A DNA stretch of 64,000 bases from positions 32,001 to 96,000 of IMG/VR virus record IMGVR_UViG_3300048997_000353. The stretch is one strand, 5' to 3'. Source of the stretch: a virus. The position numbers and the translations under genes were made by a program. The notes under the pieces are model-generated. The model did not search any database. It had not been told where the DNA came from and was given only the letters and a program-made list of their open reading frames with translations. Of this stretch, positions 3,258 through 51,920 are shown one piece after another; the first letter of the stretch is position 1; each line of letters begins with the position of its first letter.

Positions 3258-3707
3258 TTAGCTACCGACGACTTCGTCTGTGCCCTCCCAAACAAATTCA
3301 GAAACCGGCAAGTGTTCACGGCAATGGCAGCAGAACGTAGCCCCGTAATAGGTATTGTCGCGCGCATAGGTTTCAGCGAGCGCGCGGCCCATGGTTGTGG
3401 TTGTGCCACACTTTGGTTTCAGTTGTTTCTCCGCCCAGAACCGACCTCGGATGGAATTGGGATTTTCCGGATAAGCTTCGAACGAAACGTACTGATATGC
3501 CGCGTACCGTACCTTTTCTTCTTCGGTGAGATCGCGAAGCGGATACTTTGGCCGATCGCCAACATGCCTATAGGATTGCCGGACTGGACGGATGAAGCCT
3601 TTGTCACGCTCGCTTTGCGGCAGCACAGCGTAGCTGCGGTATTGCCCGTCGGGACCAATGGGGCCATTGTCAAACGGTTCATGCTTCGGCTTTTCAACAG
3701 TGCTCAT
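3258..3707 (-). CDS. Hypothetical Cys/His (Zn-finger-like) protein
   Basis: YRH...KCG...FCCHCREH motifs; tightly packed in the operon. Confidence 0.55.
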   Translation of the reverse strand: MSTVEKPKHEPFDNGPIGPDGQYRSYAVLPQSERDKGFIRPVRQSYRHVGDRPKYPLRDLTEEEKVRYAAYQYVSFEAYPENPNSIRGRFWAEKQLKPKCGTTTTMGRALAETYARDNTYYGATFCCHCREHLPVSEFVWEGTDEVVGS

Positions 3708-24800: not shown

Positions 24801-24875
24801 TGGAGCGCCTGGCGCGATTCGAACGCGCGACCCGCCTCTTTAGAGAAGGCTACTCTACCGCTGAGTTACAGGCGC
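24801..24875 (-). tRNA. tRNA with CUA anticodon (amber suppressor), Gly-like acceptor
   Basis: GCGCCTG TA ACTC AGCGGTA GAGT A GCCTT CTCTAAA GAGGC GGGTC GCGCG TTCGAAT CGCGC CAGGCGC T CCA. Confidence 0.9.
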
Positions 24876-24908: not shown

Positions 24909-25388
24909 TTATTCCAACGATTCGACCAAGCTGGTGCCCGGTCCGCACTCAAGCGCAGTGAGCTGCCGCCCACTACCGGGCAGAGAATTGGTGCGGACGG
25001 TAGGATTTTCACCCACACTTTCAGCTTTAGAGGCCGACGTGCCTGACACCGCGTCCGCAGTGTATTTCCAAAGTCGGTAGTTCTTCAGCGCCGCGCGCTG
25101 TTCCCCCGTGATCGGAGCCGTGGCAATCGCCGTAAATCCAAAGTTATTATCCGGTTCGGTCCAGAGGTAGTGCGGGATGTAGTTGGCTTGCAGCTTCGCC
25201 ACGACGCGGCGCAAAGCGGCCACACCGGGCAGGCCGACGACGATGATATTGGGAACGAGATCTTCGTTGGGGTGCTGGATGGCGGCGAGATGGAAAACTG
25301 CATGATTGGCTTGAACGATTTGGTGAGCGACAGGAATGTCCTGTCTAACGAAAACGTACACTGCATGGTCAGTGGGAATCTATGTCAT
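24909..25388 (-). CDS. PTH2-like peptidyl-tRNA hydrolase with an in-frame TAG at codon 3
   Basis: YVFVRQDI..AHQIVQANHA..WTEPD..TAIATAP is PTH2/PTRHD1-like. ATG ACA TAG at 25388-25380 is in frame with GTG 25361. Confidence 0.75.
24932..24981 (-). ncRNA. 50-nt mini tRNA-like element with acceptor stem and ACCA end
   Basis: GCCCGGT...ACCGGGC-A-CCA encloses the hairpin AGTGGGC-GGCA-GCTCACT and a short second hairpin. Confidence 0.6.
24989..25058 (-). tRNA. Atypical 70-nt CUA tRNA (small D-arm, tRNA-Pyl-like T-loop)
   Basis: GCGGACG CG GTGT CAG GCAC G TCGGC CTCTAAA GCTGA AAGT GTGGG TGAAAAT CCTAC CGTCCGC A CCA. Confidence 0.75.
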
Positions 25389-25877: not shown

Positions 25878-26240
25878 TCAGTGGAAAAGTTTTGCGGAAA
25901 GTTTAAGTGGCGGGAATAATTTTGGCGAGCGCAGTAGTTCGATGATTGGCTTGTCTGCCTCTAGCACGTGCCATGTATCAGGCACGACTCCGTAATTCTT
26001 CCATGCCTTTTCCACCATGATGTTCAAATCCCTGATCGTGATCGTGGCTACTTCAATCGGACTCTTTCCCCACTTCCCACCGGCAAAAGTATAAACACCT
26101 CCGGAATCCACCGAATAATTCCCAGGTTTTATTTCGCTCGGAAAACTGAAGATCCGAAACGGCCAGGAGCGCGCAGCGGCCGTAGCTGCCACGCCGCCTA
26201 CGATCATGCCCAAGAATCCGCGTCTTGAAAGATTACTCAT
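25878..26240 (-). CDS. Protein with a twin-arginine-like N-terminus
   Basis: MSNLSRRGFLGMIVGGVAATAAA. Confidence 0.55.
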   Translation of the reverse strand: MSNLSRRGFLGMIVGGVAATAAARSWPFRIFSFPSEIKPGNYSVDSGGVYTFAGGKWGKSPIEVATITIRDLNIMVEKAWKNYGVVPDTWHVLEADKPIIELLRSPKLFPPLKLSAKLFH

Positions 26241-26485
26241 AGAGTTTCTCCACGCGCCGCAAGCAGGCGACGATTTCAGGTTCAACTTGTTGCAGCTTGA
26301 GTGTGCCCATCACCACGCGTTCGATATGACGGTTGGCGACGCCCAGCTCCGTCCAACATCGCGCGCCATCGCCTCGCGTTTCGGCGCGCAACTGGATTGT
26401 GTTCCGTCGTTGAATGTAATCTTCAAGAATCATGAATTTTAATGGGACGGTTGGTCACCAGTTATTCCCCGGCAGGGGTGACTCC

Positions 26486-26533
26486 ACGGTACGCCTTCAC
26501 AAGCAGCGTTTCGTCTCACGACTCTTCAGCCGC
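26486..26533 (-). ncRNA. Hammerhead ribozyme (type I)
   Basis: GCGG CTGAAGA GTC-GTGA-GAC GAA ACGC...GCGT A CCGT: full catalytic core, three stems and a GUA cleavage triplet. Confidence 0.85.
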
Positions 26534-26609
26534 TAATAACGCCGGGCCAGATGTCAGCAAGACCGTCCCGTCGCTGACCCACGGATCGTACTGCAACATG
26601 CCTTAAATT

Positions 26610-26685
26610 TGGTGGACCTGACCGGCTATGATCCGGCTGCCTCCTGATTGCAAAACAGGCGCTCTCCCAATTGAGCTACAGGCCC
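26610..26685 (-). tRNA. tRNA-Ala(UGC)
   Basis: Cloverleaf with G3:U70, anticodon TGC and encoded CCA; non-canonical T-loop ATCATAG. Confidence 0.88.
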
Positions 26686-31401: not shown

Positions 31402-32095
31402 AGCACGATCCCGGTTTCCCTTTTGGGCGGCTCGGGAATGACAGGTTTGCGATCCACGGCGTCGGCCAGCTCGCGCAGAAGTTGCGAGAAGCCAGTCGTG
31501 CGATCGTGTTCATACACCTTGCCCGACCACACCACTTTATCGCTGATAAACACCGTGGCTTCGTAATCGGAAATGTTACTGGCGAGGGGCTGCTCGGAAA
31601 GATTCCGAACTCGGATGGTCATCATTGAATGATCTCGCGCGCGTGGTGCAACCGCCGAAACACATTGCCCGCCGCGACCCATCCGTAGGCCATGCCAGTG
31701 TCCCTTGTCAGGATCAGGACTGGCGTGAAGCAGTTCGAACATCCAAGAACCAATGCGTGACGGCCCTGCTGCTGTTGCCTGTAAACGTCAATCGCTTCCT
31801 CGATCGTCAGTCCGTACTTCCGGACGATGATCAGAGGTCCCGGCAGTTTTTGTTGGTTGTTCAAGTCGGGGCGCCCTATCGAAAATTTCCACGCTGATCA
31901 GGTCTGGCCTCAGTACATCGACGCCTTGACGCTCGCAACGCGGATTCGTGCAGCGGATCAAAGTTAAAATCCGCGGTGATCGTTCGAGTTTATTACCACA
32001 CAAAAGACAGTAGAAATTCCTGCCTTCCGTGATGAGCATGCGCGCTTCGGTGCCGTGTGATTCTAGGCCCATGGGCGCGATCACGATAACACGGA

Positions 32096-51480: not shown

Positions 51481-51920
51481 GACTTAAGCCGGACGCCAGC
51501 AGGGACCGGAACAGGGGTTCAACGCATTAGATTCCAGAGCAAAGTTAGGATGTGGCCTTGAGCCGATGATTCCTACTAACTTCCGCGATGTGGCCCCGCG
51601 CCGAATTCGGGATGGTCCTCTGGAGTTGATTAGGTTCCTACAGAATAGCTCTATGGTTTGTTGTCCTATCGCTGACCATAGTGAAGGAAAGCCAATTCCT
51701 CTACCTGTACACAATCCACGGACGAAAGAAGATGCCTAAGTCAGATGAAGCGCAATCGGATAGCGCGGAATTATCCGTCCGACGCGTAGAACGGTAAGTC
51801 TACGCCACAACAGATTTTGCAGATGGACTCCGGTCAGGACCGCCGAGAAAGCGGAACCCGCAGGCTACACGCTAGGCAAACCGGAGTTAATGCACACGGT
51901 CCGTCCAAAGTCGGACCAAA
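51481..51920 (+). ncRNA. Long structured non-coding leader
   Basis: No credible ORF; at least seven visible helices (e.g. GACTTAAGC/GCCTAAGTC, ACTCCGGT/ACCGGAGT, GCGTAGA/TCTACGC). Confidence 0.5.

Follow-up and report, generated by a model that had tools for sequence, protein, structure and literature searches.

A probable hammerhead ribozyme within a conserved, pseudoknotted RNA cassette downstream of a phage tRNA-Ala gene

We analyzed a 64,000-nucleotide (nt) stretch of viral DNA, positions 32,001 to 96,000 of IMG/VR record IMGVR_UViG_3300048997_000353. This stretch, hereafter the window, is part of a 108-kb record that is estimated to be 71% complete. PHROG matches place portal, large terminase and glycosyltransferase genes in the window, mostly on the minus strand, with the large terminase at 48390-46567 (-) and the portal at 23872-21413 (-). 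On the strand that runs from large terminase to portal lies a tRNA-Ala gene with anticodon UGC and an encoded CCA (26610-26685, minus strand; ARAGORN, and 54.6 bits with the Rfam tRNA model). A 25-nt spacer (26609-26585) separates it from the subject of this report, a cassette on the same strand (26584-26444, recognized by the family model R1 described below) that consists of a conserved, pseudoknotted scaffold with a hammerhead motif inserted in it. The first open reading frame (ORF) downstream of the cassette (26233-26433, minus strand) putatively encodes 66 amino acids and has neither a Pfam match nor an evident ribosome-binding site. A scan for promoters and terminators near the cassette gave nothing above chance.

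The inserted motif is a complete type I hammerhead on the minus strand at 26529-26490, or 26533-26486 when stem I is included. CUGAAGA (26529-26523) matches C3 U4 G5 A6 N7 G8 A9, and GAAA (26512-26509) provides G12 A13 A14 and the A of the A15.1-U16.1 pair (A26509-U26491); H17 is A (26490) rather than G, and all core positions are canonical. Stem I pairs GCGG (26533-26530) with CCGU (26489-26486), stem II consists of GUC and GAC around a GUGA loop (26522-26513), and stem III pairs ACGCU with GGCGU (within 26509-26491). The pairs beside the core are standard: 10.1-11.1 is G26522-C26513 and 1.1-2.1 is G26530-C26489. Both the order of the parts and the alignment to the Rfam Hammerhead_1 model give the type I topology, in which loops close stems II and III and stem I is open. 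The predicted cut falls between A26490 and C26489, 120 nt from the last base of tRNA-Ala (26610). An initial annotation of this stretch had described the complete core with stems I to III and had placed the cut 3' of 26490, 120 nt past the CCA. Those coordinates stand, and the core and stems are borne out by the sequence and by the descriptor search and stem covariation reported below.

Would such a motif be expected by chance? The loose pattern CUGANGA-gap-GAAA occurs 4 times in the window against 4.9 expected from shuffles. Since it is no rarer than in shuffled sequence, we wrote a strict descriptor: the core, a stem II of at least 3 bp, GAA, an A15.1-U16.1 pair with a stem III of at least 3 bp, an H17 other than G, and a stem I of 4 bp. 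This descriptor matched once in the 64-kb window and once in the 108-kb record, both times at the cassette site. In first-order Markov simulations of the window, any match at all appeared in 1 of 200 (mean, 0.005).

When a 24-nt stretch of the window core was used in an exact search of viral contigs, no match was returned. A sensitive blastn search against named phages did match the region downstream of the tRNA, beyond the tRNA itself. The named carriers include Arthrobacter phages Karkharias and Constance; Mycobacterium phage Gaia, with the cassette directly after tRNA-Ser; the M. abscessus prophage phiGD24-3, with the cassette between tRNA-Ser and tRNA-Trp; and a T7-like Enterobacter phage, with the cassette between capsid and tail tubular genes. 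The hammerhead is common to all of these, compensatory changes included, as are conserved boxes outside it. We collected further copies from IMG/VR with a pattern composed of GGAGU, ten free bases and GGGGAAUAACUG, which has matches in at least 119 stretches; among the IMG/VR matches listed, the hammerhead core stands directly 5' of GGAGU in 101 of 127 pattern instances, duplicates included. The sets of 78, 79 and 104 copies used below are all unique copies, the 79 being standard-order copies from one ascertainment. A second pattern, aimed at hammerhead-less copies, was too loose: about 16 of its 112 unique matches are scaffolds, as judged by reading, and the remainder are chance matches, many in coding DNA. 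Five scaffolds were new (L145, L175, L176, L190 and L217), four of which entered later alignments.

We anchored 78 unique copies on three boxes, scanned all column pairs, and then tested named structures on alignments. The scaffold that emerged is about 95 nt long and has many invariant bases and four covarying helices (Pa, Pb, Pc and Pd), two of which are pseudoknots. Pa and Pc are hairpins whose loops pair with remote single strands to form Pb and Pd, respectively. In the window copy, the 5' box (s1, 26584-26578) is a base that we call X, here C26584, followed by CGUGGG (26583-26578), which is invariant in 49 of 49 rows of alignment A2 (49 hammerhead copies, the window copy included). At the fourth base of CGUGGG there is covariation with the C of AAUAACUG: 12 copies have G:C and 3 have U:A. 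Hairpin Pa comes directly after CGUGGG (26578-26573 with 26558-26553), and 4 of its 5 pairs change on both sides in the 49 copies. Within the Pa loop lies the Pb 5' strand, GGGACGGU (26569-26562), which pairs with ACCGUCCC (26451-26444); the latter strand forms the 3' boundary of the scaffold and ends 10 nt short of the ATG that opens the downstream ORF. The initial annotation had taken these two strands to close a larger domain around the hammerhead. The pair does exist; since its 5' strand sits in the Pa loop, however, it is a pseudoknot and not a plain outer stem. The element also begins further 5' than had been thought, at 26584, and the domain is by itself a conserved RNA, 13 of 79 copies being without a hammerhead.

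In 77 of 78 copies, the Pa loop and the 3' tail form Pb without gaps over 6 bp or more, mostly 7 to 10. Two short Pb helices stem from misplaced anchors (L064 and L067), and MAFFT columns align this helix poorly, with 52 to 65% of cells paired. After Pa come the conserved CAUCUGG (26553-26547) and the covarying Pd 5' strand, CCCGGC (26546-26541). The last G of CAUCUGG (G26547) pairs with C26476, after the Pc 5' strand, as G:C in 46 copies and U:A in 3. Pd, the second pseudoknot, pairs CCCNNN before the hammerhead with NNNGGG in the Pc loop (GCCGGG, 26473-26468, in the window), and G:C, A:U, U:A and C:G pairs are all seen in it. On the far side of the hammerhead stands the 3' box (s9, 26489-26481), which repeats the s1 sequence: X', here C26489, is the first base after the cut, and CGUGGAGU follows, with CG-GGAGU invariant in A2. 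Hairpin Pc, after GGAGU, joins 26482-26477 to 26459-26454, and 3 of its 6 pairs change on both sides. Its loop also holds GGGGAAUAACUG (26470-26459). The invariance of this 12-mer in the pattern-collected sample is by construction, because the pattern required it, and variants are seen elsewhere. The window copy thus has the boxes CGUGGG, CAUCUGG-CCC, CG-GGAGU and GGGGAAUAACUG and helices Pa, Pb, Pc and Pd, in order, between 26584 and 26444. About half of the copies are further enclosed by a flank-to-flank helix of 10 to 19 bp, which is absent from the window copy. A tRNA-like cloverleaf, drawn by eye from the outer helix, Pa, stem I and Pc, was dropped; the Pc loop is 17 nt long, and no part of the structure is like a T-arm.

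Pairing in the scaffold helices is nearly complete whether or not a hammerhead is present. In the 49 hammerhead copies, 100% of cells are paired in Pa, 100% in Pd and 99.7% in Pc; the corresponding values in 15 hammerhead-less copies are 98.9%, 100% and 98.9%. For the hammerhead itself, the 49 copies give 94.9% in stem I, 80.8% in stem II and 98.9% in stem III, and compensatory changes occur in all three stems; the N1.1-N2.1 pair of stem I, for example, is G:C in 28 and C:G in 19. The covariation score over these copies was 0.534 against 0.152 in shuffles, a value reached by 0 of 500, and sliding the partners by 1 to 3 columns lowered pairing to 35 to 44%. A model-fitted alignment of 118 matches gave the same picture, with 96.2% of cells paired. 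The counts come from related sequences; hence, they show conserved pairing, not independent events.

From 45 copies, the window copy not among them, we built the family model R1, whose E-values are rough because the calibration was short. R1 scored the window copy at 104.5 bits (E of about 4e-39) over 26584-26440, model positions 1 to 146, and found no other copy in the 108-kb record. In total it returned 118 matches, in nearly all of 100 searched sources.

The hammerhead is an insert in this scaffold, and its site is fixed, between the Pd 5' strand and box CG-GGAGU. A hammerhead-sized insert is present in 63 of the 79 standard-order copies, 13 have no insert, and 3 have an insert of 13 to 20 nt. 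Fifty-six of the 63 inserts match a strict core pattern, one has the U3/A8 form, three have a canonical core with a long stem III that escaped the pattern, and three are deviant. The core in phage Gaia is UUGAUAA, not CUGANGA, which gives the compensatory pair of U3 and A8 whose covariation in natural hammerheads has been reported by Perreault et al. (PMC3088659). By eye, the three short inserts (L027, L048 and L123) contain a stretch complementary to the CGUGG boxes, or another copy of the box.

In T7-like phages the parts are circularly permuted, with the hammerhead and 3' half first and the 5' half after them. The permuted form of the Enterobacter phage (permuted cassettes lie at 1440-1660 in L005 and 3501-3708 in L298) is also present in 15 of 5426 complete Escherichia coli genomes, at 90 to 99% identity (14 of the 15 at 95 to 99%). 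The one E. coli genome inspected has it in a lambdoid prophage, flanked by the genes for antiterminator Q and holin. That a T7-like phage and E. coli prophages share the permuted cassette suggests recent transfer between unrelated phages.

The IMG/VR pattern also matched 46 stretches of species-representative prokaryote genomes. By our own arithmetic (17 fixed bases, 596 Gb), about 70 chance matches would be expected; hence, we checked all 46 loci with R1. It scored 27 of them at 61 to 128 bits, 4 only weakly, and 15 not at all. Strong loci occur in isolates of Burkholderia anthina, Acinetobacter geminorum, Pseudomonas nitroreducens and Marinibaculum pumilum and in metagenome bins labelled from many phyla, including one archaeon label that may reflect wrong binning. 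Several prokaryote loci contain a second, weaker R1 match (20 to 32 bits) 30 to 150 nt from the main copy (L270 6876-6985, L243 4872-4967, L247 274-415, L256 5561-5637 and L242 1730-1881). In viral loci, such match pairs are the two halves of permuted copies.

Where do these cassettes lie? ARAGORN found same-strand tRNAs in the loci of 38 of 104 unique instances. The tRNAs in these loci are all on the cassette strand, except in the window, where two of three are. A same-strand tRNA lies within 100 nt upstream in 17 of the 104 copies, the scaffold begins 0 to 1 nt after a tRNA in 5, a tRNA follows within about 100 nt downstream in 15, and the cassette is also found inside tRNA arrays. One hammerhead-less scaffold (L026, 3427-3522) nearly fills the spacer between a tRNA that ends at 3425 and another that starts at 3525. 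We scanned 20 downstream and 10 upstream flanking proteins against PHROGs and 8 against Pfam, 5 of the latter being upstream proteins scanned again after PHROGs had given them no name. A named function is lacking for most; the others point to the packaging and head module. In L012 and L070 the large terminase is upstream and the portal downstream of the cassette; a small terminase lies downstream in L086 and, with a weaker match, in L101; and the large terminase is upstream of the hammerhead-less copy L091, with another large gene next on its other side. The link to a tRNA trailer drawn by the initial annotation is real and not obligatory: beside the 17 copies with a tRNA close upstream stand others at terminase/portal, Q/holin and capsid/tail positions.

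These contexts (terminase/portal, small terminase, capsid/tail, Q/holin and tRNA arrays) fit the punctuation of transcripts. We propose that tRNA-Ala and the cassette are co-transcribed on a minus-strand late transcript that would run from the terminase region to the portal gene. Once the scaffold had folded, the hammerhead would cut between A26490 and C26489. The upstream product would comprise tRNA-Ala, the 25-nt spacer, the 5' half of the scaffold and the ribozyme, compactly folded and ending in a 2',3'-cyclic phosphate; the downstream product would have a 5'-OH end 56 nt upstream of the ATG at 26433, followed by seven unpaired bases and hairpin Pc. The scaffold would serve as a clamped, extended stem I that holds the ribozyme in shape, Pb and Pd would keep both halves joined after the cut, and the scaffold may replace the usual loop-loop contact between stems I and II. 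It also has a function for which no cleavage is needed, since scaffolds that lack a hammerhead occupy the same contexts. In this way, the cassette would punctuate the long late polycistronic transcripts of its phages. The suggestion in the initial annotation that the ribozyme processes the tRNA-containing transcript or sets the 5' end of an mRNA is supported in part; a cut 120 nt past the CCA is too far away to generate the 3' end of the tRNA.

We consider it likely that the hammerhead at 26529-26490 is genuine and acts in transcript processing within the cassette, and punctuation of a late polycistronic transcript is the most likely form of that action. Any specific role for the scaffold is much less certain. 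Several observations weigh against our reading. Transcription, cleavage and the part of the scaffold are all read from sequence. The Hammerhead_1 model, one of the Infernal hammerhead models that the initial annotation had proposed as a check, gave the window copy 17.4 bits against a gathering threshold of 34 (E of 0.23, a local match to model positions 7 to 39), and at gathering score Rfam found no hammerhead in 20 family loci; the threshold is a curated cut-off that carries no structural requirement. Minimum free energy folding misses the hammerhead fold and is no better than for shuffles (z of 0.22 and -1.65), in programs that cannot model pseudoknots. The stems of the window copy are short, 3 bp in stem II and 4 bp, including one G-U, in stem I. 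Hammerheads usually conserve the 10.1/11.1 pair as G-C. It is G-C in the window copy and non-standard, mostly A/A or U/U, in 22 of the 49 A2 members (columns 92/114). Three cores deviate: L028 has an extra base after A6, L035 is degenerate, and L098 has C at position 4 in place of U4. The scaffold boxes are intact in all three. With 13 of 79 copies lacking a hammerhead and one to three more having damaged cores, and with the hammerhead-less L091 at the same terminase-portal junction, cleavage is evidently not essential to the role of the scaffold. Finally, the cassette was found in none of 16 portal-related phages (47 to 74% identity, L282-L297) within the fetched flanks, some of which were short; hence, it is dispensable for the lineage of the window phage. 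It is thus patchy among close kin and widely shared among distant phages. Two neighbour proteins of 115 and 333 amino acids, used as anchors, yielded no relatives.

Could the main functional RNA be the scaffold, then, with the hammerhead as optional cargo? On this account, a small structured RNA would be freed by processing of its flanks, in tRNA arrays by RNase P and the enzymes that act on tRNA 3' ends and elsewhere by RNase III at the long outer helix, and would act on a conserved component of host or phage. We regard this as a serious possibility, short of probable. Copies without a hammerhead, such as L026 and L091, retain every helix and invariant base and lie in the same contexts; some scaffolds abut a tRNA, others have a tRNA shortly downstream, and half or so lie inside a flank helix; the permutation in T7-like phages preserves the fold and not the order of parts; and many bases are invariant across phages of hosts from many phyla. 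However, genomic context revealed no target or partner, and the hammerhead occupies a single fixed position in about 80% of copies, so that the parts are clearly co-adapted. For the window copy, moreover, this account is compatible with transcript processing by the hammerhead and mainly shifts the emphasis.

A bolder version, which we think unlikely, makes the scaffold a new class of functional phage RNA, either catalytic or binding a universally conserved partner, with the hammerhead as a frequent passenger and the two X-CGUGG boxes as a possible strand-swap switch. In 78 of 79 copies, X, which precedes CGUGGG, is identical to the first base past the hammerhead cut, though it varies among C, G, U and A. 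The boxes are near-copies, not complements, and their partner strands (the outer-helix 3' tail and the stem I 5' strand) are also alike; hence, a swap of partners would be allowed. During transcription, the 5' box could initially pair with the hammerhead's stem I strand and so hold the ribozyme off; only pairing of the 3' tail with the 5' box would then let stem I form and the ribozyme fire, which would gate cleavage on completion of the fold. X is a purine in 31 of 63 hammerhead copies against 2 of 13 insert-less ones, a modest contrast (Fisher p, 0.03). Direct pairing of the two X-CGYGG boxes was also considered; it is possible through their palindromic core and agrees with X being a pyrimidine in 11 of the 13 copies that have no insert, and we set it aside as it leaves the identity of X in both boxes unexplained.

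Could the scaffold instead be an undescribed self-cleaving ribozyme that cuts just before s1 and frees the upstream tRNA, with the hammerhead making a second cut? From the sequence comparisons we judge this improbable. The five copies that begin 0 to 1 nt after a tRNA have the arrangement of theta ribozymes (PMC10879173), and pseudoknots, a buried 5' end, invariant bases and circular permutation are typical of small ribozymes; the scaffold also shares gene neighbourhoods with known ribozymes, and the window has a twister match. Yet no Rfam ribozyme family matches the scaffold, in roughly half of the copies the putative cut site falls within a long, perfectly paired helix, and in the window the scaffold begins 25 nt past the CCA. 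We also tested the HDV-like order P1-P2-P3-L3-P3'-P1'-P4-J4/2-P2', a nested double pseudoknot that is cleaved at the 5' end of P1. In our own helix mapping the order differs: no P3 hairpin lies between the P2 and P1 strands, that is, locally between the Pb 5' strand and s9. The mapping onto an HDV-like fold was therefore rejected, and no Rfam model of the HDV family matched at E values up to 10.

Least probable is that the motif resembles a hammerhead by chance or is one that has decayed and lost its activity: the Rfam score below threshold, the short stems I and II and the broken cores of L035, L098 and L028 would suit it, but the window core is canonical, the descriptor matched once where 0.005 matches were expected, R1 aligned the copy over its full length, and 59 inserts have either the strict core (56) or a canonical one with a long stem III (3).

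We conclude that the ribozyme is of a known class and that the cassette is uncatalogued and forms a large phage family. The cassette resembles the type I hammerheads of phages and prophages (RF00163, clan CL00010; Perreault et al. 2011, PMC3088659) in its core, three-helix junction, open stem I and intergenic setting, and the idea advanced there, that hammerheads cut long phage transcripts into gene-length RNAs, fits it. Unlike theirs, its stem I has no simple loop or bulge at its end and runs on into the conserved scaffold of about 95 nt, with its pseudoknots, which also occurs ribozyme-free, and the window copy and 20 family loci fall below the Rfam threshold. Theta ribozymes, which are minimal HDV-like ribozymes (Kienbeck et al. 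2024, PMC10879173), likewise lie immediately downstream of phage tRNAs, in phages with possible suppressor tRNAs, and the window has two CUA tRNAs. They differ from the cassette in class and fold; they cut within 5 nt of the tRNA rather than 120 nt away, and the cassette is common away from tRNAs. The remark in the initial annotation that ribozymes beside phage tRNAs are mainly HDV-like agrees with the literature searched, in which we found no tRNA-linked phage hammerhead; the theta ribozyme article, PMC10879173, does not use the word "hammerhead." The large, ornate, phage-associated RNAs GOLLD and ROOL (Weinberg et al. 2017, PMC5737381) are also structured, often in prophages and adjoining tRNAs; unlike the cassette, they are several hundred nt long and ribozyme-free, and they form separate Rfam families that have no match here. 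Rfam 15 has no family for the scaffold: besides tRNAs, it gave only sub-threshold matches that are probably due to chance. Nor did the literature searched contain a description of the scaffold, a result on which the supplementary alignments of PMC3088659 and the data of PMC10879173 might bear.

Bacterial and phage hammerheads are numerous, and their purpose is still unclear. In the cassette, a hammerhead is coupled to a constant, strongly conserved partner and recurs at a handful of positions on phage late transcripts. As E. coli lambdoid prophages, Mycobacterium phage Gaia and Arthrobacter phages are tractable systems that carry it, the question can be put to a direct test. Since the scaffold is widespread, conserved across host phyla, tolerant of permutation and without an Rfam 15 family, it may be a class of RNA with its own biochemistry. 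The 20 family loci in which Rfam finds no hammerhead at gathering score also show that current public models miss a whole group of phage hammerheads.

A few minor observations concern other RNAs. At gathering score, Rfam gave four tRNA matches and one Twister-P5 match in the window and nothing else; a permissive scan added mir-571 (E of 8.9), sub-threshold and probably a chance match, as are probably the sub-threshold BjrC68 and BSnc120 matches beside the L009 copy. The Twister-P5 match (51818-51915, plus strand) overlaps the start of an ORF at 51890 and lies just above threshold (39.5 bits against 37.6; E of 1e-4); hence, this phage may carry a second class of self-cleaving ribozyme. The two CUA-anticodon, amber-reading tRNAs (24801-24875 and 24992-25058, minus strand) lie 1.4 to 1.8 kb downstream of the cassette on its own strand, and two of the portal-related phages (L287 and L288) retain this tRNA pair.

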